A stretch of 64,000 bases of DNA from Leucoraja erinacea (GCF_028641065.1 NC_073387.1:21948001-22012000), one strand, 5' to 3'. Counted from the first letter of the stretch, positions 10,556-63,956 are shown. Translations and numbers: made by a program. Notes: a model not told the origin generated them from the letters alone.

Positions 10556-10561
10556 TTTATT
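10556..10561 (-). terminator. Candidate polyadenylation signal AATAAA for unit 2
   Basis: About 165 nt downstream of the stop, at a conserved position across paralogs. Confidence 0.45.
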
Positions 10562-10723
10562 TGCTAAAAGTTATATTTTACCATTACAACAAATGCACAA
10601 TTTAAATGAAAGCGAAATTGCACAAAATAATATAATCTTAAATATTTAATTCACGAATGAATTCACATTCCTTGAGATTAAATGGCCCCAAATAAGGTGC
10701 GTCTTACTTGAGGTTACACATCG

Positions 10724-13102
10724 TTAGGCCTGAGACGTGGGAGCGCCGCATGGCTTCAAGAAGAGGAAATCACTTTTCGCTGACTCTGGAGACAGGCAGA
10801 CCGAATATTGATGCGGTTCCGGCACGCGGACCACCCGGCCCGTCCCGGGATAGCGTAAAGTTTCCTCCATGATAGGTCTTCCATTAAGCGTGCCGTGCAA
10901 GTCTCCACGATTGTAACAATAATTGGGGGTGTTGTACCCTTGGATAATGCTTCTGTCCTGTTTACACTTGATGCCAATCAACAGAACGATGATCAGAAGA
11001 AAGACAACGGAAGTGCAACTGAATATGATGATTAAGTAAACATTTGGATCAGCGAAATATTCTGGATTTTTCATCAAGGTGCTGCTTTCGGTGATTCCTT
11101 CAGTACTGTTCTCCAAAACTCTTATGTTCATTGTAACTGTACTGGACAGGCTTGGCTGCCCATTGTCCTTCACCAAGATGACCAGAGTTTGTAAAGGATT
11201 ATCGGACTGCAAAATATTCCGTGCTGTTCTGATTTCGCCGGAATTTTGCCCAACGTTGAACAAAGTGGCATCGGTAGATTTCGTCATCTGGTAAAAGAGC
11301 CGCGAATTCTGACCAGAATCTGCATCGGTTGCCATTATTGTGGTGACCAAGTAACCTTGACGCGCTGACCGGGGCACGACCTCCGCTGCTGCTGATCCAC
11401 TCTCTTCTGAAGGTGAAACAATTACCGGCGCGTTGTCATTTTGATCCAGGATGATCACATTCACTGTGGCGCTGCTGCTTAATGGAGGCACCCCGGCGTC
11501 ACGGGCTTGTACTTTGATCTGGAAGTTTTTGAAATTCTCATAATCAAAGGAACGCAGCGCGTAAATCGTTCCATTTACGGGGTTGATGGTCAGGTAAGAG
11601 GATACCGGCAGGTTTTGGATGTGATTGTTCACAAAAGAGTAAGAAATATAGCCGTTCTGCTCCTGATCATCATCTAGTGCAGTTAATGCGAAAATTGATG
11701 CACCCGGAGCGTTATTCTCCATCACATAGACATTGTAGGAGGATGCAGCAAACCGCGGGGCGTTGTCGTTTACATCGGTGATAGCAATTCGGATAGTTTT
11801 ATTAGATGTCAGTGAAGGCGACCCCAAGTCCCATGCCGTAATTACTAATATATATTCAGAAATCACCTCACGGTCCAACGTTTCACTGGTAACCAATTTC
11901 GATGCTGCTTGTATTCTAAATGGGACGTTCTTCGGTATCTCGCAGTGGAATTGGCCGTTCTCTCCAGAATCACGGTCAATAATATCAATGAACGTTATGA
12001 GTGTTCCTAGTGGAGCATTTTCCGGAATTTTGTTGGAAGCTGATGTCACCTTAATCTCGGGTGCGTTATCGTTCACGTCAATGACTTTGATCAGCACATT
12101 TGCGTGTCCAGTAATTGCAGGTGAACCGTGGTCTACAGCTTGAATATCTAGAGAATAGCTAGTTGCTTCTTCAAAATCCAGCGGTCCTTCTACACGGATC
12201 TCCCCACTATCTGGGTCTAAACTGAACAAATTACGCGCTCTTCGCAAAGCAACATCACTAAAAGTGTACGTTAGCTCCGCATTCATTCCTTCGTCCGCGT
12301 CATTTGCATTGACTTTCATCACAATGGCACCTTGCCGAGCGTTCTCACTTAAGCTGCTCCTGTAAATATCATGATCGAACACTGGTGGATTATCATTAAT
12401 GTCCACTACAGTAATGAGAACCCGAGCTGTGGCTGATCTCTGAGGGATCCCACCGTCAACCGCTGCAAGCAAGAGTTGATATGATGATTGGACTTCTCGG
12501 TCTAAATATTTCTCTAACAGTAACTCGGCTACCATAATACCATCTTCTGTTGTATGCGTTTTTAGACTAAAGTGCTCATTGGAACTGATTGTGTAGGCGG
12601 TGACGGTATTTATTCCAATATCGGGATCTTCCGCGCTCTCAAGACGGAAACGTACTCCGGGTGCAATCGCTTCAGATATCTGCAAGGCGATGCTTCCGTC
12701 TCCGAAATTCGGAGGATTATCATTGATATCGAGAATCTCTACTTCCCCGCGGTACACCTCCAAAGGATTTTCCAGTATTGTTTTAAAATACATGGTACAC
12801 ATATCTGCATGCCTACAAATACGTTCCCTGTCGATTCTTTCATGAATAGATAATACCCCATTGTCTGAACCAACCTTCATGTACCGTCCTCCGTCATCAG
12901 AGCTTAGTCGTAACTTGCGAGCCGACAATTGCCGTACGTTCAGACCCAGATCTAGAGCGATATTTCCAACATAAGCGCCTTCTGCCATTTCTTCGCGAAT
13001 AGAATAACGAAGTTGCCCGGTAATTAGATCCGGTGCACATACCAGTAACATACACGCAAACACATTGCAGGCAAACCTCGTTTTTTGGTTTTTGTACGCC
13101 AT
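10724..13102 (-). CDS. Clustered protocadherin (gamma-C5-like), unit 2, 792 aa
   Basis: Signal peptide, six EC repeats (DRE, DxNDNxP, AxDxG motifs), TM (VYLIIIFSCTSVVFLLIIVLLIGI) and tail ending CLSPESAKSDFLFLKPCGAPTSQA. ATG at 13102 in ACAATGG context. Confidence 0.95.
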   Translation of the reverse strand: MAYKNQKTRFACNVFACMLLVCAPDLITGQLRYSIREEMAEGAYVGNIALDLGLNVRQLSARKLRLSSDDGGRYMKVGSDNGVLSIHERIDRERICRHADMCTMYFKTILENPLEVYRGEVEILDINDNPPNFGDGSIALQISEAIAPGVRFRLESAEDPDIGINTVTAYTISSNEHFSLKTHTTEDGIMVAELLLEKYLDREVQSSYQLLLAAVDGGIPQRSATARVLITVVDINDNPPVFDHDIYRSSLSENARQGAIVMKVNANDADEGMNAELTYTFSDVALRRARNLFSLDPDSGEIRVEGPLDFEEATSYSLDIQAVDHGSPAITGHANVLIKVIDVNDNAPEIKVTSASNKIPENAPLGTLITFIDIIDRDSGENGQFHCEIPKNVPFRIQAASKLVTSETLDREVISEYILVITAWDLGSPSLTSNKTIRIAITDVNDNAPRFAASSYNVYVMENNAPGASIFALTALDDDQEQNGYISYSFVNNHIQNLPVSSYLTINPVNGTIYALRSFDYENFKNFQIKVQARDAGVPPLSSSATVNVIILDQNDNAPVIVSPSEESGSAAAEVVPRSARQGYLVTTIMATDADSGQNSRLFYQMTKSTDATLFNVGQNSGEIRTARNILQSDNPLQTLVILVKDNGQPSLSSTVTMNIRVLENSTEGITESSTLMKNPEYFADPNVYLIIIFSCTSVVFLLIIVLLIGIKCKQDRSIIQGYNTPNYCYNRGDLHGTLNGRPIMEETLRYPGTGRVVRVPEPHQYSVCLSPESAKSDFLFLKPCGAPTSQA

Positions 13103-13344: not shown

Positions 13345-13368
13345 CTCATTGGTAGACAGCGACACGAC
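13345..13368 (-). promoter_or_regulatory. Protocadherin promoter CSE (CGCT box)
   Basis: Same 24-mer as 2085-2108, about 256 bp upstream of ATG 13102. Confidence 0.85.
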
Positions 13369-15896: not shown

Positions 15897-15902
15897 TTTA
15901 TT
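15897..15902 (-). terminator. Candidate AATAAA for unit 3 (pseudogene)
   Basis: Same position relative to the exon end as in units 2, 8 and 9. Confidence 0.4.
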
Positions 15903-16062: not shown

Positions 16063-18400
16063 TCAATAGGCCTGAGACGTGGGAGCGCCGCATGGCTTCA
16101 AGAAGAGAAAATCACTTTTCGCTGACTCTGGAGACAGGCAGACCGAGTAGTGATGCGGTTCCGGCACGCGGACAACCCGACCTGTCCTGGGATAGCGTAA
16201 AGTTTCCTCTATGGCAGGTCTACCATTAAACTATCGTGCAACTCTCCACCATTGTAACAATAACTGGGGGTGTTATACCCTTGGATAATACTTCTGTCCT
16301 GTTTACACTTGATGCCAATCAACAGAACGATGATCAGAAGAAACATAACGGAAGTACAGCTGAAAATTATGATAATGTACACATTTGGATCAGAGAAATA
16401 TACTGGATTCTTCACCAAGGTGCTGCTTTCGGTGATTCCTTCAGTGCTGTTTTCCAAAACTCGAATGTTCATTGTAACTGTGCTGGACAGGCTTGGCTGC
16501 CCATTGTCCCTGACCAAGATGACTATAGTTTGTACAGCAGTGTCGGACTGGAAAATATTGCGCGCATCTCCGGAACGTTGTCCGACGTTGTACAAACCGG
16601 GGTCGGTAGATTTCACTATCTGAAAAAAGAGCTGTGCGTTCTGACCAGAATCTGCATCCGTTGCCATTATCTTGCTGACCAAGTACCCTTGACCCGCTGA
16701 CCGGGGTACGGTATCCACTGCTGATGAGCCACTTTGTTCTGAAGGTGAAACTATTACCGGCGCGTTGTCATTTTGATCCAGGATGATCACATTCACCATG
16801 GCGCTGCTACTCAACGGAGGCACCCCGGCGTCACGGGCTTGAACATGGATCTGGAAGTTTTTTAGTTCCTCATAATCAAAGGAACGCAGCGCGTAAACAG
16901 AACCGTTTTGGATATGGTTATCGAGAAAGGAGTAGGAAATATAGGAATTTTGATCCAGATCAGGATCTGTTGCGGTTACTGTGGAAACGGACGCACCCGG
17001 AGCGTTATTCTCCATTATATATATATGTTGTAGGATGACTCTGCGAATTGTGGTTCGTCATCGTTAACGTCCGAAATTGCAATATGGATGGTTGTATTGG
17101 ATGAGAGTGACGGCGACCCCAAGTCCCAGGCTGAAATAAGAATGTTATACTCAGGGATGGCTTCACGGTCCAACGTTTCACTCGTGGTTAATTTATAGTT
17201 GTTCGATACCTTTTGCAGTCGAAATGGGACGTTCTTTTGTCTTAACTCGCAACGTACTTGACCGTTCGCTCCAGAATCACGATCCATCACATTAATCAGA
17301 CATATGAAACTACCTGGTGGCGCATTTTCCGGGATTTTGTTGCAAGGTGATGGTACCTTTATCTCCGGTGCGTTGTCGTTCATATCAGTGACTTTGATCA
17401 GTACTTTGGAGTGTCTTGTCATTGCAGGGGGACCATGGTCCTGGGCTCGAATATCCAGAGAATAGCTGTTTACTTGTTCAAAATCTAGAAGTCCTTTGAC
17501 TCGAAGCTCCCCAGTAACTGGGTCTAAACTGAATAATTTTCGCGCTCTTATCAAAGAAATATCACTAAAACAATACGTCAGCTCCGAATTCAGTCCTTCG
17601 TCCAAATCATTTGCTTTGACTTTCAGCACCAACGTACCCCGCGGCGCGTTCTCACTTACGATGCCTCTGTAAATATCATGATCGAACACAGGTGGATTAT
17701 CGTTGATTTACAATACAGTAATGATAATCTGAGCTGTGGCTGATCTCTGAGGGGTGCCACCATCAGTCGCCGTAAACAAGAGTTGAAATGATGATTGCTG
17801 CTCTCGGTCCAAAGATCTCCCTAACAGCAACTCGGCAATCAAAGTACCGTCTTCGGCTCTCTGTGTTTTTAGAATAAAGTGCTCACTGGAGCTGATTGTG
17901 TAAGCGGTCACGGAGTTTGTAACAATGTCGGGATCATCCGCCCCCTCGAGTCGGAAACGTACACCGGGTGCACTTGCTTCCGATATCTGCAAGACAATGC
18001 TGCTCTGCGGGAAAGTGGGGGAATTGTCATTTACATCAAGAATCTCCAATTCCCCGTGATACACCTCCAAGGGGGTTTCCAGTATTGTTTCGAAATATAC
18101 AGTGCATTTATCATTCTGTCCACAAATACGTTCCCGGTCAATTTTTTCACGAATAGACATGATTCCATTGTCCAAACTGACCTTCAGGTACCGCCCTCCG
18201 TCATCAGAGTTCAGTCGGAATTTGCGAGCTGACAGTTGCCGTACATTCAGGCCCAAATCCACAGCGATATTCCCAACAAATGCCCCTTGCACCATTTCCT
18301 CGGGAATAGAATAACGAATTTGCCCGGAGATTGGACCCGGTGCACATATCACAAACATGTAAGCAAATGCTGTGAGGGCAAACCTCCGTGTGTGCGCCAT
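16063..18400 (-). pseudogene. Full-length protocadherin pseudogene, unit 3
   Basis: Split into ORFs 17708-18400, 17015-17689 and 16209-17015. Lesions: in-frame TAA at 17708-17710 (VL*INDN), +2 (AT)n slippage near 17017-17026, 39-nt deletion near 16905, 9-nt deletion near 16566, -1 frameshift near 16232. Confidence 0.92.
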
Positions 18401-18617: not shown

Positions 18618-18641
18618 CTCATTGGTAGACAGCGACACGAC
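18618..18641 (-). promoter_or_regulatory. Protocadherin promoter CSE (CGCT box), intact upstream of the pseudogene
   Basis: Exact copy of the 24-mer, about 230 bp upstream of ATG 18400. Confidence 0.8.
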
Positions 18642-22971: not shown

Positions 22972-22977
22972 TTTATT
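22972..22977 (-). terminator. Candidate AATAAA for unit 4
   Basis: About 160 nt downstream of the stop at 23137. Confidence 0.4.
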
Positions 22978-23136: not shown

Positions 23137-25521
23137 TCAGCTTTGGGCTTGAGAGGTGGGAGCGTCGCGTGGCTTCAGGAAGAGAAAATCGCTTTTCGCT
23201 GACTCTGGAGACAGACAGACTGAGTATTGATTCAGTTCTGCCCCCCGGACTACCCGTCCCGTCCCAGGATAACACAATGTTTCCTCCATAGCTGGTCTTC
23301 CATTAAACGTGCCGTGCGAAACCCCATGATTGTAACAATAACTAGGGGTGTTATACTCTTGGATAATATTTCTGTCCTGTTTACACTTGATGACAATCAA
23401 CAGAATGATGATCAGAAGAAAGACCACGGAAGTGCAACTGAAAATGACGATTAAATAAACGTTTGGATCAGATAAATATTCTGGCGTCTTCACCAAGGTA
23501 CTGCTTTCGCTGATTCCTTCACTGCTGTTTCCCAAAACTCTAATGTTCATTGTAACTGTGCTGGACAGGCTTGGCTGCCCATTGTCCTTAACCAAGATGA
23601 CTAGAGTTTGTAAAGCAGTATCTGACTGGAAAATATTGCGCGCTGTTCTGACTTCTCCGGAACGTTGTCCAACGTTGTACAAACCGGGGTCGGTAGATTT
23701 CACTATCTGATAAAAGAGCCGTGCGTTCTGACCAGAATCTGCATCAGTTGCCATTATCTTGCTGACCAAGTACCCTTGACCCGCTGACCGGGGTACGGTA
23801 TCCACTGCCGCCGATTCACTCAGTTCTGAAGGTGAAATGATTACCGGCGCGTTGTCATTTTGATCCAGGATGATCACATTCACCGTGACGCTGCTGCTCA
23901 ACGGAGGCAGCCCGGCGTCACGGGCCTGTACATGGATCTGGAAGTTCTTGAGTTCCTCATAGTCAAAGAAACGCAGTGCGTAAATAGTACCGTTCATTGG
24001 ATTAATGGAGAGGTAAGTGGATACTGGCATGTTTTGGATATGATTATCGAGAAAGGAGTAGGAAAGGTAGGAATTTTGATCCAGATCGTGATCTGTTGCA
24101 GTTACTGTGAAAATGGATACACCCGGCGCGTTATTCTCCATTACATATACGTTGTAGAATGACTCCGCGAATTGCGGTGCGTTGTCATTTACGTCCGAAA
24201 TAGCAATCTGGATGGTCTTATTTGATGTTAGAGAAGGCGATCCCAAGTCCCAGGCTGAAATTACAATGTTATACTTAGAGATCGCCTCACGGTCCAACGT
24301 TTCACTGGTGACTAATTTATAGTGGTTCGATGTCTTTTGCAGTCGAAATGGGACGTTCTTTTGTATCTCGCAACGCACTTGGCCGTTAGCTGCGGAATCG
24401 CGATCGATCACATAAATCTGGGATATGAAACTTCCTGATGGAGTATTTTCCTGGATTGTGTTGGAAGCTGATGTTACCTTTACCTCGGGTGCGTTGTCGT
24501 TCACGTCAATGACTTTGATCAATATTTTGGAGTGTCCTGTCATTGCCGGGGAACCGTGGTCCTGGGCTCGAATATCGAGAGAATAGGTGTTTACTTCCTC
24601 AAAATCTAAAGGCCCTTGAACTCGAATCTCCCCAGTGCGTGGATCCAAACTGAATACATGTTGCACTGCTCGCAAAACAACATAATTGAAACGATATGTC
24701 AGCTCCGCATTCAGTCCTTCGTCCAAATCATTTGCTTGCACTTTCAGCACCAACGTACCCCGCGACGCATTCTCACTTACGCTGCTTCTGTAAATATCAT
24801 GGTCGAACACAGGTGGATTATCGTTCTGGTCGAATACCGTAATCAGAACCTGTGTCGTAGCTGATCTCTGAGGGGCCCCGCCGTCAAACGCAGTAAGCAT
24901 GAGTTGAAATGATGATTGCATCTCTCGGTCCAAAGATTTCTCTAACATCAATTCGGCAATTATAATACCGTCTTCGGATTTCTGTGTTTTTAGACTAAAG
25001 TGCTCATTGGAACTGATTGTATAGGCGGCCACGGTATTTGTACCAATGTCGGGATCATCCGCGCCCTCGAGTCGGAAACGTATCCCGGATACACTGGCTT
25101 CCGATATCTGCAAGGCAATGCTGCTTTGCGGAAAAGTGGGGGAATTGTCATTTACATCAATAATCTCCAATTCGCCGTCAGACACCTCAAACGGATTTTC
25201 CAGTATTGTTTCGAAACGTATAGTACATTGATCATTCTGCCCACAAATACGTTCCCGGTCGATTCTTTCACGAATGGACATGATTCCATTGTCCAAACTA
25301 ACCTTCATGTACCGCCCTCCGTCATCAGAGCTCAGCCGGAATTTGCGAGCTGACAATTGCCGTACATTCAGGCCCAAATCCACAGCGATATTCCCAACAA
25401 ATGCCCCTTGTTCCATTTCCTCGGGAATAGAATAACGAATTTGCCCGGAGATTAGTCCCGGTGCACAAATCGCAAATATGCAAGCAAACGCAGGGAAGGC
25501 AAACCTCGGTAGGTACGCCAT
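23137..25521 (-). CDS. Clustered protocadherin (gamma-C5-like), unit 4, 794 aa
   Basis: Intact ORF with signal peptide, EC1-6, TM and tail ending SDFLFLKPRDAPTSQAQS. Confidence 0.95.
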   Translation of the reverse strand: MAYLPRFAFPAFACIFAICAPGLISGQIRYSIPEEMEQGAFVGNIAVDLGLNVRQLSARKFRLSSDDGGRYMKVSLDNGIMSIRERIDRERICGQNDQCTIRFETILENPFEVSDGELEIIDVNDNSPTFPQSSIALQISEASVSGIRFRLEGADDPDIGTNTVAAYTISSNEHFSLKTQKSEDGIIIAELMLEKSLDREMQSSFQLMLTAFDGGAPQRSATTQVLITVFDQNDNPPVFDHDIYRSSVSENASRGTLVLKVQANDLDEGLNAELTYRFNYVVLRAVQHVFSLDPRTGEIRVQGPLDFEEVNTYSLDIRAQDHGSPAMTGHSKILIKVIDVNDNAPEVKVTSASNTIQENTPSGSFISQIYVIDRDSAANGQVRCEIQKNVPFRLQKTSNHYKLVTSETLDREAISKYNIVISAWDLGSPSLTSNKTIQIAISDVNDNAPQFAESFYNVYVMENNAPGVSIFTVTATDHDLDQNSYLSYSFLDNHIQNMPVSTYLSINPMNGTIYALRFFDYEELKNFQIHVQARDAGLPPLSSSVTVNVIILDQNDNAPVIISPSELSESAAVDTVPRSAGQGYLVSKIMATDADSGQNARLFYQIVKSTDPGLYNVGQRSGEVRTARNIFQSDTALQTLVILVKDNGQPSLSSTVTMNIRVLGNSSEGISESSTLVKTPEYLSDPNVYLIVIFSCTSVVFLLIIILLIVIKCKQDRNIIQEYNTPSYCYNHGVSHGTFNGRPAMEETLCYPGTGRVVRGAELNQYSVCLSPESAKSDFLFLKPRDAPTSQAQS

Positions 25522-25750: not shown

Positions 25751-25774
25751 TTCATTGGTAGACAGCGACACGAC
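25751..25774 (-). promoter_or_regulatory. Protocadherin promoter CSE (CGCT box)
   Basis: TTCATTGGTAGACAGCGACACGAC on the plus strand, about 240 bp upstream of ATG 25521. Confidence 0.85.
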
Positions 25775-27383: not shown

Positions 27384-27996
27384 TTAACACTGACCTTGAG
27401 AGGTGGCAGCACCACATGGCTTCAGTAAGAGAAAAATCGTTTTTCGCTGACTGGAGACAGACTTACCGAGTATTGATTCAGATCTGGCCCGCGGACTGCC
27501 CGCTCTGTCCAAGGATAGGGTAACATTTCCTTCATCGCAGATCTTCCATTAAACGTGCCGTGCGAAACCCCACGATTGTAACAGTAACTGGGGGCGTAAT
27601 ACTCTTGGATAATATTTCTGTCCTGTTTACACTTGAAGCCAATCAATAGAATGATGATCAGAAGGCAGACCACGAAAGTGCAACGGATAATGACAATTAA
27701 ATAACCGTTTAGATCTGAGAAATATTCTTAATTCATCACCAAGGTACTTCTTTCGCTGATCCCTTCAGTGCTGTTTTCCAAAACTAATGTACATTGTAAA
27801 TGTGCTGGACAGGCTTGGCTGTCCATTGTCCTTAAGCAAGATGACTAGAGTTTGTAAAGCTGTACCTGACTGCAAAATATTGCGCGCTGTTCTGACTTCT
27901 CCAGAATGTTGTCCAACGTTGTACAAACCGGGGTCGGCTGATTTCATAATCTGATAAAGGAGACGTGCGTTCTGACCAGAATCTGCATCAATTGCC
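27384..27996 (-). pseudogene. 5'-deleted protocadherin pseudogene (EC6 part, TM, tail), unit 5
   Basis: Frameshifted remnants DADSGQNAR, LYNVGQHSGEVRTARNILQ, LLKDNGQPSLSS and LLIIILLIGFKCKQDRN. At 27997 it joins directly to upstream-spacer sequence homologous to 26158 onward. No CSE. Confidence 0.9.
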
Positions 27997-30900
27997 CTTC
28001 ATATCACGACTACATAATTTTCCCTTCTTTGATAAGAGTATTTCATTATCGCTTTCCAAATTTTGGAGAAGGTGTTCGTGAACATAATGCTTTCAATTGG
28101 CCAATTGTTCAACCGACTCCCTGTTTAATGGAAGTGATGTTTGGAGAGAGGCATCCTCACGTCCAAGTCAAGCCAAGTTTATCGACACGTACCTGCATAT
28201 GAAGCAGAGGCAATGCTGCAATGTAAATCTTGCTTGCAGCAGCTTTGCAAGCGCATGACACAGCAGACTCCGACAGATGTTTTGGGAACATAGAAAATAG
28301 ATGTCGGTGTGAAGTTTGGCGCGAAAAATTTGTGAATTTTTGAATTCTTATTTAACTTAGGATTCTCAGTTTCGTTTTTTCTTTTTTCTTAATTTGTTTT
28401 ATTACCGCAATTTGCAATGAAATGACTGGATTACCCATTAATCCGCAGATATTTTGTTCATTGAAAATACTCCCTAGTTAACATTAATCTCGTGGTACCA
28501 CACTTAGCGTGTAAACAAGTATTTTTAGTGAACGTTAACAAGGTGGCCCAAAGTACGTGTAATGTGGTTAGAGAATTGAAGTTTAATTTCTGCTCCTCGA
28601 GTTTGCAGTGGATGTTCAACGTCATGCACGATCCCGGCAAAATTTGAATGGGACAAGTTTTTCATGACGTAGAGGATAGAATCTCTTATCAAACTAAATG
28701 GTAATGTTCTCCATTGGTTGAAAATGTTCTGGAGATTTCTGATGCCACACTTGGTTTATTGGATATCAATTCCATATCATTCTCAAGTTAGCGCTGGGTT
28801 TCACCTTTTATATTCCATAACCACACACAAGTTTTACAATGACTGAACCACGCGCTCCCCGATCAAATCAAACTGCAATAAAATTCAATCATCCGAATAA
28901 TTGTAATAAAATCTGCAAATTAAAACGCAAACATCACGAAAAACTACAGGTGAGATGATGGATAATTCCTTCCACCAACGAGGAAGCATGCTGTTTTCGC
29001 AATTCAGCAATTAACTGATAAGCAGTCAAAAGCGCATCGATTCAGATATCATCCGTGGAAAGCAATGCAATCAACATTTCGGGGCTTGGCTGCTTTATCT
29101 GAACGATGAATTATTTAAAAGAGTTCATTTTTCAGTAAGTTTAATGATGGGAAGTAAAGGAGACAAAAAAGGAAAGAGGCTGATAGGACAAATTATGCTT
29201 CGTTGTTTCTGTGGTGTATGGCTAATAGCAAGGGAATGGGACGTGTTCAGGTTATTGAACAGACGGGGATTCCGTCTGAAATAAATTTGTTCTTTAAAAC
29301 TGTGAACAGTGGTGGACAGGGTCTCACCGAAGGCATATAGCACGGTTGTGTCCCTCAGCAGCGGTACTGAATGTAAGAGTCGAGGTGTAATATCTTTGAA
29401 TAAAACATTGGTTAGGCTAGATTTGAATTATTGTGTGCACATCTGGCATGCACAATATATAAGTTGTTGGGTTAAGTCGGATAGGTAGCAGGCCACACTG
29501 CAAAGAACGTTGCCAGGATGGGCAGGTTTACGTCATGAGGGGAGATTGTATAGGCTAGAACTGCATTCCCTGGAGTGAACATTGCTGAGCGGTGCCATGA
29601 CACAATCACGAGCGAGAGAGACAGAGTAGATTCCCACAGCCATTTCCAATGGTAGGGCGCTCCAAGACTAGAACATAAGTTTTAGGATCAGAGGGAGTAC
29701 TTTTAAAGTCGACCGGATAGCTATTAATTTCAGAAATACGGAATACGGCAGGTGGATTGAGATGTCAGTTTATGTGACGGAGACGGGAACAGTTAAATAT
29801 GTAAAAGGTACATAATGGGAATGTGACTATGTAGGGAATTGATGGACATGGAGTTAATGCTCGGGTGGAATTAGTACAGATAAACGTGATGGTCATCGTA
29901 GATGCGATGTAACGAATGGTTTGTTTGTATGATCTACACCTCGGCAAACATGATGCAAAACTAAACTGGAATGATAACAGACATGAGTGGCGAGCTCAAG
30001 AAGGTTGCAACTTGTCCATTTGGAAGATGAATGCTGTTTCTTAAGCGTGCACGTTTGCTTTGCACTTGTTCCAACAATGTTGGAATTCAGAGGCAAAAAT
30101 AATAGATAGTGTGAAATTGTGAACGGAAGTGTTAAACAAACCTTCCTGATTGCTGGGCGTGTTGGCAGTACCTTACCCAGAACAAAAAAAAACACAATTT
30201 GAACCTCACGGTCCGATATTAGGGGACATGATCAATTTTAAACAAATCAGTTTAATCCCTGCAGACTGTACGCACGTGCTCTACAATGCAATGGCACAAT
30301 CTTCTTGCAGTGTTACCACATTGGGAAGACCAAATACTTACATTATATTGACAGAAAGGCAAGCAGATCACTATTTCACCGAGAAGAATTTCGGGTCCTG
30401 TATGGTGGAACTGGTAAAATAAACGAACGTTACACGTTTTCTGGTCAGATGACTACCATATAGCTCGATGAAAAAGTGTTACATTTGAACTGCTGAACAG
30501 ACAGGGAAGGGGGTATCTACTCAGTGACGGGATTATGTTTAAATTGAGGTAAATTGAATTAAATGTGAAAGTTGGTGAATGGAGGATTCAATAAGGAAAT
30601 GCTGTTCTTGTTCCATCCAGGAGAGCCAAGATGCTGAGAACCGATCCCTTCCCGATTGCTGGGCGTGTTAGCAGTACCTTACCCTGAACAAAAAAACACA
30701 ATTTGAACCACACGGTCCGATATTAGGGGACATGATCAATTTTGAAACACATAAATGAATAGTTAACATTATCTTTAAATATTACAATGTACGATATTTA
30801 ATTTAAAACACCGTGTTACACTAACGGGATACACATCTATGTAATAAGCGTGTTCGGTATTCCGTCTACGCATGCCCAGGTCATAGGTCACTAGTTATAA

Positions 30901-31112
30901 ACAGTCTCGGCAACGGTGGTGCTGCGTTGTGTGCAGGCTTGCGTTTCGTCCGTGGTCGGGGTCGGGGTGGGGGTCGAGGTGTGGGTGTTCTTTTTGCTGC
31001 TGGGGCGTCCTCGTCACATCCCCAGTGTCCCGTCCCTGTCCGTAGGTGGCCGGGGTGGCTTTGGGCTGGCTATGCGGGGATTCCGGCAGCCCTCCACCTC
31101 CACCCCCTCCCC

Positions 31113-34014: not shown

Positions 34015-34020
34015 TTTATT
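34015..34020 (-). terminator. Candidate AATAAA for unit 6
   Basis: About 152 nt downstream of the stop at 34172. Confidence 0.4.
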
Positions 34021-36794: not shown

Positions 36795-36818
36795 CTCATT
36801 GGTAGACAGCGACACGAC
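36795..36818 (-). promoter_or_regulatory. Protocadherin promoter CSE (CGCT box)
   Basis: Exact 24-mer, about 255 bp upstream of ATG 36553. Confidence 0.85.
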
Positions 36819-44367: not shown

Positions 44368-46752
44368 TTAGCATTGGGCTTGAGAGGTGGGTGCGCCGCA
44401 TGGCTTCAAGAAGAGAAAATCGCTTTTCGCTGACTCTGGAGAAAGACAGACCGAGTATTGATTCGGCTCTTGCAAACGGAGTAGCCGGCCCGTCCCAGGA
44501 TAGCGTAAAGTTTCCTCCATGGCAGATCTCGCATTAAGCGTGCCGTGAGAACCCGCATGATTGTAAGAATAATTAGGGGTGTTATAATCTTGGATATTAA
44601 TTCTGTCCTGTTTACACTTGATGCCAATCAACAGAACGATGATCAGAAGAAAGATCACTGAAGTGCAACTGAAAATGATGATTAAATAAACGTTTGGATC
44701 AGATAAATATTCTGGAGTCTTCATCAAGGTACTGCTTTCGCCGGTTCCTTCAGTGCTGTTCCACAAAACTCTAATATGGATTGTAACTGTGCTGGTCAGG
44801 CTTGGCTGCCCATTGTCCTTAACCAAGATGACTAGGGTTTGTACAACAGTATCTGACTGCATAATATTGCGCGCTGTTCTGATTTCACCTGAATGTTGTC
44901 CAACGTTGTACAAACCAGGGTCGGTAGATTTCACCATCTGATAAAAGAGCCGAGCGTTCTGACCAGAATCGGCATCAGTTGCCATTATCTTGGTGACCAA
45001 GTACCCTTGACCCGCTATCTGGGGCACGAACTCCACTGTTGCTGGGCCACTTTGTTCTGAAGGTGAAACAATTACCGGCGCGTTGTCATTTTGATCCAGG
45101 ATGATCACATTCACCGTGGCGCTGCTGCTCAACGGAGGCACCCCTGCGTCACGGGCTTGTACACGGATCTGGAAGTTCTTGAGTTCCTCATGGTCAAAGG
45201 AACGCAGCGCGTAAATAGTACCGTTCATTGTGTTAATAGTGACATAACTGGATACTGGCATGTTTTGGATATGATTATCGAGAACGTAGTAGGAAACATA
45301 GGAATTCTGATCCAGATCGGGATCCGTTGCAGTCACTATAAAAATGAATGCACCCGGAGGGTTATTCTCCATTACATATACGTTGTAGGATGCATCACCG
45401 AACTGCGGTGCGTTATCATTAACGTCTGAAATTGCAATCTGGATGGTTTTATTTGATGAAAGTGACGGCGACCCCAAGTCCCAGGCTGAAATAAGTATGT
45501 CATACTCAGAGATGACTTCACGGTCCAACGTTTCACTCGTAGTTAATTTATAGTGGTTCGATGTCTTTTGCAGTCGAAATGGGACGTTCTTTTGTATCTC
45601 GCAACGTACTTGACCGTTCGCTCCTGAATCACGATCCATCACATTAATCAGGGATATGAAACTTCCTGGTGGCGCATTTTCCTGGATTTTGTTGGAAGCC
45701 GATGTTACCTTTATCTCAGGTGCACAGTCGTTCACATCAGTGACTTCGATCAGTACATTGGAGTGTCCTGTCATTTCAGGGGAACCGTGGTCCTGGGCTT
45801 GAATATCCAGAGAATAGCTGTTTACTTCTTCAAAATCTAGTGGCTCTTGGACTCGAATCTCCCCGGTGCGTGGTTCCAAACTGAATACATTTTGCGCTCT
45901 TCGCAAAGCAACATCACTAAAACGATATGTCAGTTCCGCATTCAGTCCTTCGTCCAAATCATTTGCTTTGACTTTCAGCACCAACGTACCCCGAGGCGCG
46001 TTCTCTCTGACGCTACCTCTGTAAATATCATGATCGAACACAGGTGGATTATCATTGAAGTCCAGTACAGTAATGAGAATCTGAGTTGTGGCTGATCTCC
46101 GAGGGGTTCCGGCGTCAGTCGCAGTAAGCAAGAGTTGAAATGATGATTGTAGTTCTCGGTCCAAATATTTCTCCAAGAGCAATTCGACAATTATAATGCC
46201 GCTCTCGGTTTTCTGTGTTCTTAGGCTAAAGTGGTCACTCGAACCGATTGTGTAAGCGGCCACGGTATTTGTACCAATGTCCGGATCATCCGCGCCCTCG
46301 AGTCGGAAACGTGCACCGGGTGCACTCGCTTCTGACATCTGCAAAGCAATGCCCCTCTGCGGGAAAGTGGGGGAATTGTCATTTACGTCAAGAATCTCCA
46401 ATTCACCTTCATACACCTCCAAAGGGTTTTCCAGTATTGTTTCGAAACGTATAGTACATTGATCATTCTGTCCACAAATACGTTCCCGGTCGATTCTTTC
46501 ACGAATACTCATGATTCCATTGTCCAAACTAACCTTCATGTATCGCCCTCCGTCATCGGAGCTCAGTCGGAATTTGCGAGCTGATAATTGATGTACACTC
46601 AGGCTCAAATCCACAGCGATATTCCCAACAAATGCACCTTGCTCCATTTCCTCGGGAATAGAATAGCGAATTTGCCCGCAGATAAGACCAGGTCGACATA
46701 TCGCAAATATGCAAGCAAACACAGTGAAAGCAAACCTCGGTAGATACGCCAT
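44368..46752 (-). CDS. Clustered protocadherin (gamma-C5-like), unit 7, 794 aa
   Basis: Intact ORF from ATG 46752 (MAYLPRFAF...) with EC1-6, TM and tail ending SDFLFLKPCGAPTSQAQC. Confidence 0.95.
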   Translation of the reverse strand: MAYLPRFAFTVFACIFAICRPGLICGQIRYSIPEEMEQGAFVGNIAVDLSLSVHQLSARKFRLSSDDGGRYMKVSLDNGIMSIRERIDRERICGQNDQCTIRFETILENPLEVYEGELEILDVNDNSPTFPQRGIALQMSEASAPGARFRLEGADDPDIGTNTVAAYTIGSSDHFSLRTQKTESGIIIVELLLEKYLDRELQSSFQLLLTATDAGTPRRSATTQILITVLDFNDNPPVFDHDIYRGSVRENAPRGTLVLKVKANDLDEGLNAELTYRFSDVALRRAQNVFSLEPRTGEIRVQEPLDFEEVNSYSLDIQAQDHGSPEMTGHSNVLIEVTDVNDCAPEIKVTSASNKIQENAPPGSFISLINVMDRDSGANGQVRCEIQKNVPFRLQKTSNHYKLTTSETLDREVISEYDILISAWDLGSPSLSSNKTIQIAISDVNDNAPQFGDASYNVYVMENNPPGAFIFIVTATDPDLDQNSYVSYYVLDNHIQNMPVSSYVTINTMNGTIYALRSFDHEELKNFQIRVQARDAGVPPLSSSATVNVIILDQNDNAPVIVSPSEQSGPATVEFVPQIAGQGYLVTKIMATDADSGQNARLFYQMVKSTDPGLYNVGQHSGEIRTARNIMQSDTVVQTLVILVKDNGQPSLTSTVTIHIRVLWNSTEGTGESSTLMKTPEYLSDPNVYLIIIFSCTSVIFLLIIVLLIGIKCKQDRINIQDYNTPNYSYNHAGSHGTLNARSAMEETLRYPGTGRLLRLQEPNQYSVCLSPESAKSDFLFLKPCGAPTSQAQC

Positions 46753-46996: not shown

Positions 46997-47020
46997 CTCA
47001 TTGGTAGACAGCGACACGAC
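46997..47020 (-). promoter_or_regulatory. Protocadherin promoter CSE (CGCT box)
   Basis: Exact 24-mer, about 258 bp upstream of ATG 46752. Confidence 0.85.
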
Positions 47021-48767: not shown

Positions 48768-49023
48768 GATCAGAGTATTGCGCGTTGTTTGACTTTTACC
48801 GGAATTTTGCCCAACGTTGAAAAAAACTGGGATCGATAGATTTCACCTTCTGATAAAAAAAAGATCCGAAATGTCTGACCAGAATCGGCATCTATGCGAT
48901 TATTTTGGTGATCAGGTACCCCTGAACCCGCTGACTGGGTTACGGCCTCCAGTGCTGCTGATCCACCCTGGTCCGAGGGTGAAACTATTACAGGCGCGTT
49001 GTCATTTTGTCCAGAATGTTTCA
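48768..49023 (-). pseudogene. Degenerate protocadherin EC6 fragment (paralog of 3738-4000)
   Basis: QNDNAPVIVSPS and DADSGQ remnants. The EC5 part present in copy A is deleted here. Confidence 0.75.
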
Positions 49024-51387: not shown

Positions 51388-53253
51388 AATGGAAACTAGT
51401 AGATTAGCTATGGATACTATGAGTTTCAAAGTAAAAGAAGTACTGACACTTTTGAAAAATATAAAAGGGGATAAATCTCCAGGTCCTGACAGGATATTCC
51501 CTAGGACATTGAGGGAGGTTAGTGTAGAAATAGCCGGGGCTATGACAGAAATATTTCAAATGTCATTAGAAACGGGAATAGTCAACTGTTGGGCACAAAT
51601 GCAGGAGTAGCAAGATGGGTAGCAACAGTGGCTGAATGGGAAAAGCCAGAGGGTAATGGTGGATGGTTGTTTGTCGGGTTGGAGGCAGGTGACTAGTGGG
51701 GTGCCTCAGGGATCGGTGTTGGGTCCTTTGTTGTTTGTCATGTACATCAATGATCTGGATGAAGGTGTGGTAAATTGGATTAGTAAGGTGGATAGGGGTT
51801 GTTGAGGATTGGCGTACTGCGCATGTTGTTCCATTCTTTAAAAAGGGTTCTAAGAGTAAACCTAGCAGTTATAGGCCTGTTAGTTTGACTTCAGTGGTGG
51901 GCAAATTAATGGAAAAGATACTTAGAGATAATATATATAAGCATCTGGATAAACAGGGTCTGATTAGGAACAGTCAGCATGGATTTGTGCCTGGAAGGTC
52001 ATGTTTGACTAATCTTCTTGAATTTTTTGAAATGGTTACTAGGGAAATTGACGAGGGTAAATCAGTGGATGTTGTCTATATGGACTTTAGTAAGGCCTTT
52101 TGACAAGGTTCCTCATGGAATGTTGGTTAAGAAGGTTCAACTGTATAAATGCAGGAGTAGCAAGATGGGTAGCAACAGTGGCTGAATGGGAAAAGCCAGA
52201 GGGTAATGGTGGATGGTTGTTTGTCGGGTTGGAGGCAGGTGACTAATGGGGTGCCTCAGGGATGGGTGTTGGGTCCTTTGTTGTTTGTCATGTACATCAA
52301 TGATCTGGATGAAGGTGTGGTAAATTGGATTAGTAAGTATGCAGATGATACCAAGATAGGGGGTGTTGTGGATAATGAGGAGGATTTCCAAAGTCTCCAG
52401 AATGATTTGGAAGAATGGGCTGAAAGATGGCAGATGGAGTTTAATGCTGATAAATGTGAGGTGCTACACCTTGGCAGGACAAATCAAAATAGGACGTACA
52501 TGGTAAATGGTAGGGAATTGAAGAATACAGTAGAACAGAGGGATCTGGGAATAACCGTCCCTAGTCCCTTGAAGGTGGAATCTCAAATAGATAGGGTGGT
52601 AAAGAAAGCTTTTGGTATGCTAGCCTTTATAAATCAGAGCATTGAGTACAGAAGCTGGAATGTAATGTTAATATTGTACAAGGCATTGGTGAGACCAAAT
52701 CTGGAGTATGGTGTACAATTTTGGTCGCCCAATTATAGTAAGGATGTCAACAAAATAGAGAGAGTACAGAGGAGATTTACTAGAATGTTGCCTGGGTTTC
52801 AACAACTAAGTTACAGAGAAAGGTTGAATGTTAGGTCTCTTTATTCTCTGAAGCGCAGAAGGTTAAGGGGGGGACTTGATAGAGGTCTTTAAAATGATGA
52901 GAGGGATAGACAGAGTTGATGTGGATAAGCTTTTCCCTTTGAGAATATGGAAGATTCAAACAAGAGGACATGACTTCAGAATTAAGGGACATAAGTTTAG
53001 GGGTAACATGAGGGGGGTCTTCTTTACTCAGAGAGTGGTAGGGTGTGGAATGAGCTTCCAGTGGAAGTGGTGGAGGTAGGTTCGTTGGTGTCATTTAAAA
53101 ATAAATTGGATAGGCATATGGATGAGAAGGGAATGGAGGGTTATGGTATGAGTGCAGGCAGGTGGGACTAAGGGAAAAAAGTTGTTCGGCACGGACTTGT
53201 AGGGCCGAGATGGCCTGTTTCCGTGCTGTAATTGTTATATGGTTTTATGGTTA
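51388..53253 (+). mobile_element. CR1-clade LINE, 5'-truncated, present only in duplication copy B
   Basis: KSPGPD, QHGF..RSCLTNL, YMDFSKAF, GVPQG and YADD motifs. Ends in a GGTTATAT-type tail with TATGAG on both sides (51382-51387, 53254-53259). The empty site is at about 8447. Confidence 0.92.
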
Positions 53254-55792: not shown

Positions 55793-55798
55793 TTTATT
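55793..55798 (-). terminator. Candidate AATAAA for unit 8
   Basis: About 163 nt downstream of the stop at 55961. Confidence 0.45.
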
Positions 55799-55960: not shown

Positions 55961-58339
55961 TTAGGCCTGAGACGTGGGAGCGCCGCATGGCTTCAAGAAG
56001 AGGAAATCACTTTTCGCTGACTCTGGAGACAGGCAGACCGAATATTGATGCGGTTCCGGCACGCGGACCACCCGGCCCGTCCCGGGATAGCGTAAAGTTT
56101 CCTCCATGATAGGTCTTCCATTAAGCGTGCCGTGCAAGTCTCCACGATTGTAACAATAATTGGGGGTGTTGTACCCTTGGATAATACTTCTGTCCTGTTT
56201 ACACTTGATGCCAATCAACAGAACTATGATCAGAAGAAAGACAAGGGAAGTGCAACTGAAAATGATGATTAAATAAACATTTGGATCAGCGAAATATTCT
56301 GGATTTTTCATCAAGGTGCTGCTTTCGGTGATTCCTTCAGTACTGTTCTCCAAAACTCGAATGTTCATTGTAACAGTACTGGACAGGCTTGGCTGCCCAT
56401 TGTCCTTCACCAAGATGACCAGAGTTTGTAAAGGATTATCGGACTGCAAAATATTCCGCTCTGTTCTGATTTCTCCGGAATTTTGCCCAACGTTGAACAA
56501 AGTGGCATCGGTAGATTTCGTCATCTGGTAAAAGAGCCGCGAGTTCTGACCAGAATCTGCATCGGTTGCCATTATTGTGGTAACCAAGTATCCTTGACGC
56601 GCTGACTGGGGCACGACCTCCGCTGCTGCTGATCCACTCTCTTCTGAAGGTGAAACAATAACCGGCGCATTGTCATTTTGATCCAGGATTATCACATTCA
56701 CCGTGGCGCGGCTGCTTAATGGAGGCACCCCGGCGTCACGGGCTTGTACTTTGATTTGGAAGTTTTTGAAATTCTCATAATCAAAGGAACGCAGCGCGTA
56801 AATCGTTCCGTTTATTGGGTTAATGGTCAGGTAAGTGGATACCGGCAGGTTTTGGATGTGATTGTTCACAAAAGAGTAAGAAATATAGGCATTCTGCTCC
56901 TGATCATCATCTAGTGCAGTTAATGCGAAAATGGATGCACCTGGAGCGTTATTCTCCATCACATAGACATTGTAGGAGGATGCAGCAAACCGCGGGGCGT
57001 TGTCGTTTACATCGGTGATAGCAATTCGGATGGTTTTATTAGATGTCAGTGAGGGCGACCCCAAGTCCCATGCCGTAATTACTAATATATATTCAGAAAT
57101 CTCCTCACGGTCCAACGTTTCACTGGTAACCAATTTCGATGGTGTTTCTATTCTAAAGGGGACGTTCTTCGGTATCTCGCAGCGGAATTGGCCGTTCTCG
57201 CCAGAATCGCGGTCAATAATATCAATGAACGTTATGAATGTTCCTGGTGGAGCATTTTCCGGAATTTTGTTGGAAGCTGATGTCACCTTAATCTCGGGTG
57301 CGTTGTCGTTCACGTCAATTACTTTGATCAGCACATTTGCGTGTCCAGTAATTGCAGGTGAACCGTGGTCTACAGCTTGAATATCTAGAGAATAGCTAGT
57401 TGCTTCTTCAAAATCCAGCGGTCCTTCTACACGGATCTCCCCACTATCTGGGTCTAAACTGAACAAATTACGCGCTCTTCGCAAAGCAACATCACTAAAA
57501 GTGTACGTTAGCTCCGCATTCATTCCTTCGTCCGCGTCATTTGCATTGACTTTCATCACAATGGCACCTTGCCGAGCGTTCTCACTTAAGCTGCTCCTGT
57601 AAATATCATGATCGAACACTGGTGGATTATCATTAATGTCCAATACAGTAATGAGAACCTGAGCTGTGCCTGATCTCTGAGGTATCCCACCGTCAACCGC
57701 TGTAAGTAAGAGTTGATATGATGATTGGACTTCTCGGTCTAAATATTTCTCTAACAGTAACTCGGCTACCATAATACCATCTTCTGTTGTATGCGTTTTT
57801 AGACTAAAGTGCTCATTGGAACTGATTGTGTAGGCGGTGACGGTATTTATTCCAATATCGGGATCTTCCGCGCTCTCAAGACGGAAACGTACTCCGGGTG
57901 CAATCGCTTCAGATATCTGTAAGGCGATGCTTCCGTCTCCGAAATTCGGAGGATTATCATTGACATCGAGAATCTCTACTTCCCCGCGGTACACCTCCAA
58001 AGGATTTTCTAGTGTTGTTTTAAAATATATGGTACACACGTCTGCATGCCTACAAATACGTTCCCGGTCGATTCTTTCACGAATAGATAATACCCCATTG
58101 TCTGAACCAACCTTCATGTACCGTCCTCCATCATCAGAGCTGAGTCGCAATTTGCGAGCCGACAATTGCCGTACGTTCAGACCCAGATCTAGAGCGATAT
58201 TTCCAACAATAGCGCCTTCTTCCATTTCTTCGTGAATAGAATAGCGAAGTTGCCCAGTAATTAGATCCGGTGCACATACCAGTAACATACACGCAAACAC
58301 ATTGCAGGCAAACCTCGTTTTTTGGTTTTTGTACGCCAT
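55961..58339 (-). CDS. Clustered protocadherin (gamma-C5-like), unit 8, 792 aa
   Basis: Intact ORF and recent paralog of unit 2 (26 amino-acid differences by manual count). Confidence 0.95.
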   Translation of the reverse strand: MAYKNQKTRFACNVFACMLLVCAPDLITGQLRYSIHEEMEEGAIVGNIALDLGLNVRQLSARKLRLSSDDGGRYMKVGSDNGVLSIRERIDRERICRHADVCTIYFKTTLENPLEVYRGEVEILDVNDNPPNFGDGSIALQISEAIAPGVRFRLESAEDPDIGINTVTAYTISSNEHFSLKTHTTEDGIMVAELLLEKYLDREVQSSYQLLLTAVDGGIPQRSGTAQVLITVLDINDNPPVFDHDIYRSSLSENARQGAIVMKVNANDADEGMNAELTYTFSDVALRRARNLFSLDPDSGEIRVEGPLDFEEATSYSLDIQAVDHGSPAITGHANVLIKVIDVNDNAPEIKVTSASNKIPENAPPGTFITFIDIIDRDSGENGQFRCEIPKNVPFRIETPSKLVTSETLDREEISEYILVITAWDLGSPSLTSNKTIRIAITDVNDNAPRFAASSYNVYVMENNAPGASIFALTALDDDQEQNAYISYSFVNNHIQNLPVSTYLTINPINGTIYALRSFDYENFKNFQIKVQARDAGVPPLSSRATVNVIILDQNDNAPVIVSPSEESGSAAAEVVPQSARQGYLVTTIMATDADSGQNSRLFYQMTKSTDATLFNVGQNSGEIRTERNILQSDNPLQTLVILVKDNGQPSLSSTVTMNIRVLENSTEGITESSTLMKNPEYFADPNVYLIIIFSCTSLVFLLIIVLLIGIKCKQDRSIIQGYNTPNYCYNRGDLHGTLNGRPIMEETLRYPGTGRVVRVPEPHQYSVCLSPESAKSDFLFLKPCGAPTSQA

Positions 58340-58582: not shown

Positions 58583-58606
58583 CTTATTGGTAGACAGCGA
58601 CACGAC
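58583..58606 (-). promoter_or_regulatory. Protocadherin promoter CSE (CGCT box)
   Basis: CTTATTGGTAGACAGCGACACGAC on the plus strand, about 257 bp upstream of ATG 58339. Confidence 0.85.
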
Positions 58607-61140: not shown

Positions 61141-61146
61141 TTTATT
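61141..61146 (-). terminator. Candidate AATAAA for unit 9
   Basis: About 164 nt downstream of the stop at 61310. Confidence 0.45.
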
Positions 61147-61309: not shown

Positions 61310-63688
61310 TTAGGCCTGAGACGTGGGAGCGCCGCATGGCTTCAAGAAGAGGAAATCACTTTTCGCTGACTCTGGAGACAGGCAGACCGAGTATTGGTGC
61401 GGCTCCGGTACGCGGACAACCCGGCCTGTCCCGGGATAGCGTAAAGTTTCCTCTATAGCAGGTCTTCCATTAAACGTGCCGTGCAACTCTCCACGATTGT
61501 AACAATAACTGGGGGTGTTATACCCTTGGATAATACTTCTGTCCTGTTTGCACTTGATGCCAATCAACAGAACGATAATCAGAAGAAACACAACGGAAGT
61601 GCAACTGAAAATTATGATAAAGTAAACATTTGGATCAGAGAAATATTCTGGATTCTTCACAAAGGTGCTGCTTTCGGTGATTCCTTCAGTGATGTTCTCC
61701 AAAACTCGAATGTTCATTGTAACTGTACTGGACAGGCTTGGCTGCCCATTGTCCTTGACCAAGATGACCAGAGTCTGTAAACCAATATCGGACTGCAAAA
61801 TGTTGCGACTAGTTCTGATTTCACCGGAAATCTTCCCAACGTTGAACAAAGTGGGATCGGTAGATTTCACCATCTGATGAAAGAGTCGTGAGTTCTGACC
61901 AGAATCTGCATCTGTAGCTATTATTTTGGTGACCAAATAACCTTGACCCGCTGATTGGGGCACGATCTCCGTTGCCACTGATCCACTCTGTTCTAAAGGC
62001 GAAACAATTACCGGCGCGTTGTCATTTTGATCCAGGATGATGACATTCACCGTGGCGCTGCTGCTTAACGGAGGCACCCCACCATCACGGGCTTGTACAT
62101 TGATCTGGAAGTTCTTGAGTTCCTCATAGTCGAAAGAACGCAGCGCGTAAATAGTACCGTTCATTGGGTTAATAGACAGGTAAGTGGATACTGGCAGGGT
62201 TTGGATCCGATTGTCCCCAAAAGAGTAAGAGATATAGGAATTCTGCTCCTGATCAGCATCTAGTGCAATTAGTGCAAAAATGGATGCACCCGGAGCACTA
62301 TTCTCCGTCACATATACGTTGTAGGATGATTCAGAAAACCGCGGGGCGTTATCGTTTATATCGGTTATTGCAATATGTATAGTTTTATTTGACGACAGTG
62401 AAGGCGATCCCAAGTCCCATGCTGAAATTGGTAATGTGTACTCAGAAATTACTTCACGGTCCAACGTTTCACTGGTAACCAATTTATAATGGCTCGATGC
62501 TGTTTGTAGTCTAAAAGGAACATTCTGAGGCAACTCGCAGCGGACTTGACCATTCACTCCAGAATCACGATCAATAACATCAATGAACATAATGAATGTT
62601 CCTGGTGGAGCATTTTCCGGGATTTTGGTGGAGGCTGATGTCAGCTTTATCTCGGGTGCGTTATCATTCACGTCAGTTATTTTGATCAGCACATTTGCGT
62701 GCCCAGTAATTGGAGGTGAACCATTATCCATAGCTTGAATATCGAGAGAATAGCTAGTTGCTTCTTCAAAATCCAGCGGTCCTTCTACACGGATCTCTCC
62801 ATTATGTGGGTCTAATCTGAATAAATTACCCACTCTTCGCAAAGTAACATCACTAAAAGTGTACGTCAGCTCCGCGTTCAGACCTTCGTCCGCGTCATTT
62901 GCATTGACTTTCATCACAATGGCACCTTGCCGAGCGTTCTCACTTAAGCTGCCCCTGTAATTATCTCGATCGAACACTGGTGGATTATCATTATTGTCCA
63001 ATACAGTAATGAGAACTTGAGCTGTGCCTGATCTCTGAGGTATCCCACCGTCAGTCGCCGTAAGCAAGAGTTGATATGATGATTGGACTTCTCGGTCTAA
63101 ATATTTCTCTAACAGTAACTCAGCTACCATAATACCATCTTCTTTTGTATGCGTTTTTATACTAAAGTGCTCATTGGAACTGATTGTGTAGGCGGTGACA
63201 GTATTTATTCCAATATCGGGATCGTCCGCGCTCTCAAGGCGGAAACGTACTCCGGGTGCAATCGCTTCAGATATCTGCAAGGCGATGCTTCCGTCATCGA
63301 AATTGGGAGGATTGTCATTTACATCGAGAATCTCTACTTCCCCGCGGTACACCTCCGAGGGATTTTCTAGTGTTGTTTTAAAATATATAGTACACATTTC
63401 GGTGTGCCTACAAATACCTTCCCTGTCGATTCTTTCACGAATAGATAATACCCCATTGTCTAAACCAACCTTCATGTACCGTCCACCGTCATCAGAGCCG
63501 AGTCGCAATTTGCGAGCTGATAATTGCCGCACGTTCAGACCCAGATCTTGTGCGAGATTTCCAACAAAAGCGCCTTCTTCCATTTCCTCCGGAATAGAAT
63601 AACGAAGTTGCCCGGTGATTAGATGCGGTGCACATACCAGTAACATACACGTAAACACATTGCAGGCAAACCTCAGTAGGTACGCCAT
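61310..63688 (-). CDS. Clustered protocadherin (gamma-C5-like), unit 9, 792 aa
   Basis: Intact ORF from ATG 63688 (MAYLLRFACNVF...) with EC1-6, TM and tail ending SDFLFLKPCGAPTSQA. Confidence 0.95.
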   Translation of the reverse strand: MAYLLRFACNVFTCMLLVCAPHLITGQLRYSIPEEMEEGAFVGNLAQDLGLNVRQLSARKLRLGSDDGGRYMKVGLDNGVLSIRERIDREGICRHTEMCTIYFKTTLENPSEVYRGEVEILDVNDNPPNFDDGSIALQISEAIAPGVRFRLESADDPDIGINTVTAYTISSNEHFSIKTHTKEDGIMVAELLLEKYLDREVQSSYQLLLTATDGGIPQRSGTAQVLITVLDNNDNPPVFDRDNYRGSLSENARQGAIVMKVNANDADEGLNAELTYTFSDVTLRRVGNLFRLDPHNGEIRVEGPLDFEEATSYSLDIQAMDNGSPPITGHANVLIKITDVNDNAPEIKLTSASTKIPENAPPGTFIMFIDVIDRDSGVNGQVRCELPQNVPFRLQTASSHYKLVTSETLDREVISEYTLPISAWDLGSPSLSSNKTIHIAITDINDNAPRFSESSYNVYVTENSAPGASIFALIALDADQEQNSYISYSFGDNRIQTLPVSTYLSINPMNGTIYALRSFDYEELKNFQINVQARDGGVPPLSSSATVNVIILDQNDNAPVIVSPLEQSGSVATEIVPQSAGQGYLVTKIIATDADSGQNSRLFHQMVKSTDPTLFNVGKISGEIRTSRNILQSDIGLQTLVILVKDNGQPSLSSTVTMNIRVLENITEGITESSTFVKNPEYFSDPNVYFIIIFSCTSVVFLLIIVLLIGIKCKQDRSIIQGYNTPSYCYNRGELHGTFNGRPAIEETLRYPGTGRVVRVPEPHQYSVCLSPESAKSDFLFLKPCGAPTSQA

Positions 63689-63932
63689 TGTTCCGTAGTC
63701 AGCGAATGTCCAAAACCAAGCCTCTCTTCGGGTAATCCGTAAAAAAATTCTTATTACAAGATAATGTAAGTCATATATATTCTGAAAGCCGTAAGGAAAC
63801 ACACTGTAAATCTATCTTCCCCAGCTTGATCCCACCATCAAAACGCAGGCACTGCTCGCCTTTCTCGTCGCGTCTGACGTTTTTGTTCTGGGCAGTGGGA
63901 GGGGCAATGGATCCATCTATGCACTTGAGCTT

Positions 63933-63956
63933 CTCATTGGTAGACAGCGACACGAC
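63933..63956 (-). promoter_or_regulatory. Protocadherin promoter CSE (CGCT box)
   Basis: Exact 24-mer, about 258 bp upstream of ATG 63688. Confidence 0.85.

Follow-up and report, generated by a model that had tools for sequence, protein, structure and literature searches.

The window analysed here, a 64,000-nucleotide stretch of the skate Leucoraja erinacea genome (G000:C11:21948001-22012000), very probably lies within the skate protocadherin epsilon subcluster, a tandem block of 40 units whose genes carry no in-frame splice donor, are likely single exons with their own CSE promoters, and are predicted to encode beta-like neuronal identity isoforms without a constant domain. Judged by sequence, the block genes are skate members of the chondrichthyan protocadherin epsilon subcluster that has already been named in the elephant shark (Callorhinchus milii). 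The architecture itself is already known, and the feature is real but mostly known.

Yu et al. 2008 (PMID 18319338) is reportedly the source paper for the elephant shark epsilon subcluster, which, going by secondary papers, appears to have been described previously as having no constant exons. PMC2764143 and PMC4978886 list delta, epsilon, mu and nu subclusters in the elephant shark; PMC2764143 reports no bony-vertebrate orthologues of epsilon, mu and nu, and the constant-exon sequences that it gives are confined to alpha, gamma, delta, mu and nu. The name 'epsilon' in PMC7766791 refers to unrelated solitary protocadherins. A literature search, which missed most subscription papers, found none on the elasmobranch protocadherin cluster.

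Organisation of the Protocadherin Cluster

The layout was obtained from EC1 and constant-tail searches of the genome and from 140 sequence stretches, which covered all but about 59 kb of the 346-kb block. In transcription order, the cluster starts with a delta-like gene at 22.434 Mb of C11, whose last constant exon lies at 22.412 Mb, and continues with the gene L002 at 22.265 Mb. The block follows at 21.72-22.07 Mb (from 22.066 to 21.724 Mb in transcription order); its 40 units correspond to 39 EC1 matches and one unit found by its tail, and 31 of them contain an open reading frame of at least 760 aa. After the block come 10 mu-side units and constant exons at 21.5837, 21.5816 and 21.4466 Mb, while farthest downstream 25 nu-side units are followed by five constant exons at 21.140-21.093 Mb. 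The labels mu and nu rest on the position of these groups and on the names used in secondary papers, and not on named elephant shark proteins. With 40 of the 77 units, the block is the largest part of the skate cluster.

Exactly three constant regions were found, delta-, mu- and nu-like. The sequence-only reading had proposed a search for constant exons beyond the left edge of the window, and this search led to the mu and nu exons downstream, with none inside the block or directly after it. No fourth constant set was found with profiles of the first and last constant exons (one of the 13 profile rows being a mis-cut variable tail), and the genome-wide search for PF15974 gave three matches among five candidates. 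The block takes the position of the epsilon subcluster, downstream of delta and ahead of mu and nu in a single cluster that has three constant regions, the elephant shark order being that implied by the names in secondary papers.

Constant exons 2 and 3 of mu (L092/L079) are 135 kb apart, separated by an intron from 21.582 to 21.447 Mb of C11. The nu constant region (L071-L075, C11 21.093-21.140 Mb) is represented by five exons in a sawfish isoform. Two frames are readable in the last exon of the region, of which one gives the canonical tail and the other the annotated isoform X11.

Genes of the Window

The window contains six intact protocadherin open reading frames of 792-794 aa (about 793 aa), all of epsilon type and on the minus strand, together with one pseudogene and one unit cut by the window edge. 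The intact frames are located at 61310..63688 (792 aa, with a signal peptide, EC1-6, a transmembrane segment, a tail of about 80 aa and its own stop), 55961..58339 (792 aa), 44368..46752 (794 aa, without AATAAA within 1.5 kb of the stop), 34172..36553 (793 aa), 23137..25521 (794 aa) and 10724..13102 (792 aa, its DNA being 96% identical to the unit at 55961, flanks included). The mean identity per EC domain among the six proteins is 77-81%. A Pfam scan of three window proteins found the variable cytoplasmic domain PF16492, EC1 and five more cadherin repeats in all three, and no constant tail in any of them.

The epsilon-type pseudogene (16063..18400, minus strand) has a premature stop near 17708 and frameshifts near 17020 and 16230, and is about 48 nt short; assembly error as its cause was ruled out by these several separate lesions. 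The eighth unit, whose 5' part occupies 1..1841 on the minus strand, proved to be intact, with 795 aa, once it was read past the left edge in locus L011. A frameshifted remnant of a further unit, extending from EC6 to the tail, lies at 27396..28022 (minus strand). Other degenerate protocadherin remnants are present between the intact units at 48860-49009 and 3995-4189, and tail remnants of a similar kind occur at 21941k, 21917k and 21857k of C11.

Open frames at 4338-4796 (minus), 7292-8257 (plus) and 52173-52892 (plus) appear, by eye, similar to reverse-transcriptase pieces of CR1/L2-type LINEs. A GC-rich island (61% vs 43%) at 30900-32000 contains two overlapping open frames of no obvious family.

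Gene Ends and Splice Donors

The six intact frames of the window had been read as stopping 8-10 codons past the FLFLKP motif with no donor ahead of the stop, and the recount gave 8, 8, 10, 9, 10 and 8 codons. A donor was defined as a phase-0 GT that matches at least five of seven consensus positions between the membrane helix and the stop, the score being a plain home-made match count with no trained model behind it. None of the 31 block genes has such a donor, whereas it is present in all 9 mu-side and all 21 nu-side genes (30/30), as well as in delta and L002. The mu donor is in use: over 330 aa the Logan-derived protein P0294 matches L045 at 100% identity, and at this donor it passes into the mu constant exons. 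Judged from DNA alone, the block genes show the single-exon structure without a constant domain that characterises protocadherin beta, and they are likely single-exon genes.

It could be argued that the block genes are mu variable exons that are joined, at least partly, to the constant exons of mu by way of weak or non-canonical donors, their short forms being read-through products. The block is indeed situated ahead of the mu constant exons and oriented like them, with a CSE in common with the mu genes, and 27 of the 31 block genes contain weak out-of-phase GT or GC sites scoring at least 5 of 7; however, mu constant exon 1 requires phase 0, and the phase-0 donor is missing in all 31. For one genuine mu exon a read-through form without splicing has been recorded (P0393), but the stop position of the block genes is conserved in sharks and rays, and no constant domain was found in any of the 146 stored proteins with a block-type C-terminus, the criterion being an identity of at least 55% to a block gene across 250 aa or more of the last 330 aa. 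We therefore consider partial splicing to mu very improbable. GTRAG sites past the stop are present in four window units. In L017 there is a late frameshift in the tail, and L018 and L024 stop 3-4 codons before their neighbours.

Candidate polyadenylation signals (AATAAA, minus strand) are located at 61141..61146, 55793..55798, 34015..34020, 22972..22977, 15897..15902 (that of the pseudogene) and 10556..10561, 152-164 nt past the stop; these coordinates, and the lack of a signal at the 44368 unit, agree exactly with those reported before. A chance match in a 41-nt stretch is expected in about 4.6% of cases at the non-coding rate of the window, although the units are paralogous copies and hence not independent draws. 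Among the block genes, 17 of 31 have AATAAA 140-180 nt past the stop, compared with 0 of 30 mu- and nu-side genes; it is absent from this interval in the other 14, five of which have none within 1 kb. The signals of the two paralogue groups in the window fall in different alignment columns, which may reflect turnover of a working signal.

CSE Promoters

All eight units of the window have a CSE on the minus strand: at 63936..63952 (where the CGCT box precedes a CCAAT and the distance to the ATG is 264 nt), 58586..58602, 47000..47016, 36798..36814, 25754..25770, 18621..18637 (pseudogene), 13348..13364 and 2088..2104 (the left-edge unit in L011, genome position 21950104). In the six intact genes the element lies 249-264 nt above the ATG, and a CSE with a CGCT box a few hundred bases above the ATG is the mark of alternate-type clustered protocadherins. 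Together with the donor results, the eight elements support the stand-alone, beta-like architecture with one CSE per gene that had been proposed for the window.

A scan of 1.14 Mb for the 17-base CSE with up to two mismatches gave 47 matches, all on the coding strand and upstream of variable exons, in 34 of the 40 block units, all 10 mu-side units and 3 of the 25 nu-side units; none was found at delta or L002. Most nu-side promoters (L050-L070) are without the epsilon/mu-type CSE, and several have a different, CGCC-containing element. The CGCT element was previously found in the elephant shark cluster, according to PMC2926608, and the CSE is described in PMC7811963, which also states that mammalian gamma-C5 has none.

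Relatives and Transcripts

The closest named proteins come first from skates and then from rays and sharks, and nearly all are about 795 aa long and end a few residues past the same motif. Every shark and ray retrieved has this short-tailed type, which makes the architecture old and confines what is lineage-specific to the copy number. In skates and a sawfish, the annotation gives relatives of mu and nu as spliced isoforms.

Evidence from RNA is thin and consists of assembled contigs, among which no transcript end at an AATAAA site was seen. In run X2, from a related organism, a 1498-nt contig covers mu exon 2 exactly and departs from the genome at both exon ends, which identifies it as spliced RNA; the same run placed 36 contigs on the two window genes tested. 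A contig of run X9 (153 nt, depth 2), a run whose library type is unproven, is colinear through the stop of a block paralogue, with 1 mismatch in 30 to L021. The mu constant exons are not covered in X9 and X10, nor is the space between genes in X2; these are absences and not evidence. Runs X1 and X4 are probably DNA. Three complete block-type open reading frames were present on Logan contigs of 3.6-4.0 kb, whose library type is unstated.

Duplication History

The window at 55.3-62.2 kb matches 10.1-16.9 kb at 96% and 89%, and 44.9-51.3 kb matches 0-6.8 kb at 93-96%. A multi-gene block has thus been duplicated with a period near 45 kb, most simply, it would seem, by unequal crossing-over. Compared with the elephant shark, the epsilon subcluster of the skate appears from these sequences to have about doubled through multi-gene block duplications. 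The recent expansion in this lineage, which had been suggested from the window, is supported both by these duplications and by the tree described below.

Recent duplication also allows the block to be seen largely as birth-and-death debris, silent or decaying copies that add little to neuronal identity, and 9 of 40 units are indeed interrupted, further remnants are present and some copies are 96% identical in DNA. Nevertheless, 31 long open reading frames persist, the CSE is almost unchanged, the tree shows sub-lineages that the block has in common with sharks and rays, and the RNA of a relative covers the genes, which makes a block of mere debris very improbable.

Phylogenetic Position

Twelve elephant shark epsilon proteins of 796-827 aa were recovered (epsilon5-14, 17 and 18; among ABV59323-ABV59336). 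A constant domain is absent from all 12 and from all 31 block open reading frames, and both end in a short tail. In a quick EC1-6 tree, which took 80 of 104 rows after 24 close paralogues were dropped, 25 block, 18 elasmobranch and 8 epsilon rows formed one clade with an SH-aLRT of 100. The careful EC1-6 tree of 52 rows, to which turtle gamma-C5, bowfin gamma-C, turtle gamma-B, otter alpha-C2, two fish alphas, deltas and PCDH10 were added, recovered the same clade at 100/100, apart from turtle gamma-C5. Both trees were built under LG+G4 with no mixture model and held one true gamma-C5, one other gamma-C and zero beta sequences, with mu and nu represented by the genes of this genome and one sawfish protein; the deep branching among subclusters was unresolved in both. 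Constraining the block and elasmobranch sequences to group with gamma-C without epsilon cost 161 log-likelihood units (AU p 2.5e-14).

The 19-residue tail motif, in which the sequence-only reading saw a likeness to gamma-C5, matches turtle gamma-C5 at 10 positions, compared with 15-16 for elephant shark epsilon, 16-17 for delta and 14 for PCDH10. Querying the genome with the gamma constant region gave only weak matches, to delta and nu exons. Among solved EC1-3 fragments the C-types rank at the top (4zpo, presumably gamma-C5, with 322 bits; alpha-C2 with 316; beta1 with 263), and many relatives are automatically annotated as 'gamma-C5-like', but the best solved match overall is PCDH10.

A gamma-C5 origin of the block was ruled out by the 100/100 epsilon clade and the AU result, and a lineage-specific new subcluster derived from a multiplied gamma-C5-like C-type isoform that lost its constant domain is hardly credible, all the more because the tail motif is nearer to delta and PCDH10 and the block genes have the CSE that mammalian gamma-C5 lacks (PMC7811963). 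The genes are not an undescribed, newly built subcluster either, since the EC1-6 tree places them in the epsilon subcluster, which had already been described.

Protein Surface and Proposed Mechanism

In mammalian clustered protocadherins, a CSE promoter is chosen stochastically and identical isoforms recognise each other in trans. By analogy, CTCF would bind the CSE, and an enhancer loop would pick promoters stochastically in each neuron. Each block gene would then be transcribed as a single exon from its own CSE promoter, and most transcripts may end near the candidate AATAAA about 160 nt past the stop. The proteins would be expected to bind their own isoform in trans through EC1-4 and to pair in cis through EC5-6.

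The roles of the cis-interface residues were taken from PMC8901172, and residues are numbered as in gamma-B7, transferred via motif spacing. The block proteins keep L555 in 30 of 31 cases, K558 in 29 and R595 in all 31; position 560 is hydrophobic in 30 of them, and the alpha-type R560 was found in none of the 31. This carrier-type face of EC6, which follows the beta/gamma pattern and not that of alpha, predicts unaided delivery to the surface. The cis face of the nu-side proteins differs, with W595 in 20 of 21 and S560 in 15. Block proteins are also predicted to enter common lattices with isoforms of mu, nu and delta, and the constant-domain signalling would then come from these isoforms. The approximately 40 tandem copies probably make the surface identity code of neurons more varied, by analogy with the mammalian system.

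Position of L002 Relative to the Block

The gene at L002:2528-5077 (C11 22.265 Mb) is a lone delta-like gene with a strong phase-0 donor at 22.2627 Mb, for which the protein atlas gave no useful name. No constant exon of its own was found in the fully examined 195 kb ahead of the block, an absence that rests mainly on the last-exon profile, the first constant exons of delta having gone unrecognised. Delta-like genes head all three units (L001, L002 and L046). With a donor but without its own constant exons, L002 may splice to the mu constant exons. It is conceivable, though rather doubtful, that it does so about 680 kb downstream and that the whole epsilon block lies within one intron, in which case epsilon would consist of donor-less variable exons of the mu unit, with CSE and enhancer in common, that were doubled in skates. 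If true, this would be a second independent beta-like subcluster, and its nested position would discriminate between the two scenarios for the origin of mammalian beta that PMC7811963 leaves open.

Comparison with Known Systems

The block resembles elephant shark epsilon in its EC1-6 clade, tail motif, lack of a constant domain and multi-gene organisation (numbering at least 18 there), and, according to the second-hand descriptions in PMC2764143 and PMC4978886, in its delta, mu and nu companions. However, the skate has about 40 units as against at least 18, and the tail of the window sub-lineage is shorter, with 8-10 residues past FLFLKP compared with about 20-35. None of the 12 elephant shark proteins retrieved belongs to this sub-lineage, whose branch consists of skate-block rows only and stands beside ray sequences.

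Protocadherin beta of lobe-finned fishes and tetrapods is likewise a tandem array of single-exon genes without constant exons, with a CSE at each promoter and a carrier-type EC6 (PMC7811963 and PMC8901172). It is reported in PMC2764143 to have no cartilaginous-fish orthologue, and beta fragments were among the weaker solved matches, the trees holding no beta sequence. Gamma-C5 has six EC repeats and a related cytoplasmic motif (PF16492), and is the source of the automatic names, but it is a one-copy gene with splicing onto the gamma constant domain (P0313, 939 aa), is without a CSE in its mammalian form and falls outside the clade. Clustered protocadherin delta of non-mammalian vertebrates and PCDH10 have the closest tail motifs (16-17 and 14 of 19), but they fall on branches of their own and are single genes that are spliced and encode long cytoplasmic domains.

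With these results the epsilon subcluster, named in the elephant shark, also takes in skates, rays and sharks. A subcluster without a constant domain as the largest part of the cluster fits a convergent use of tail-less isoforms in widening the neuronal code. The automatic names 'gamma-C5-like' and 'protocadherin-10-like' are misleading and are corrected here. In records P0060-P0072 and P0093, several automatic models fuse two adjacent epsilon genes or add spurious exons to epsilon18.
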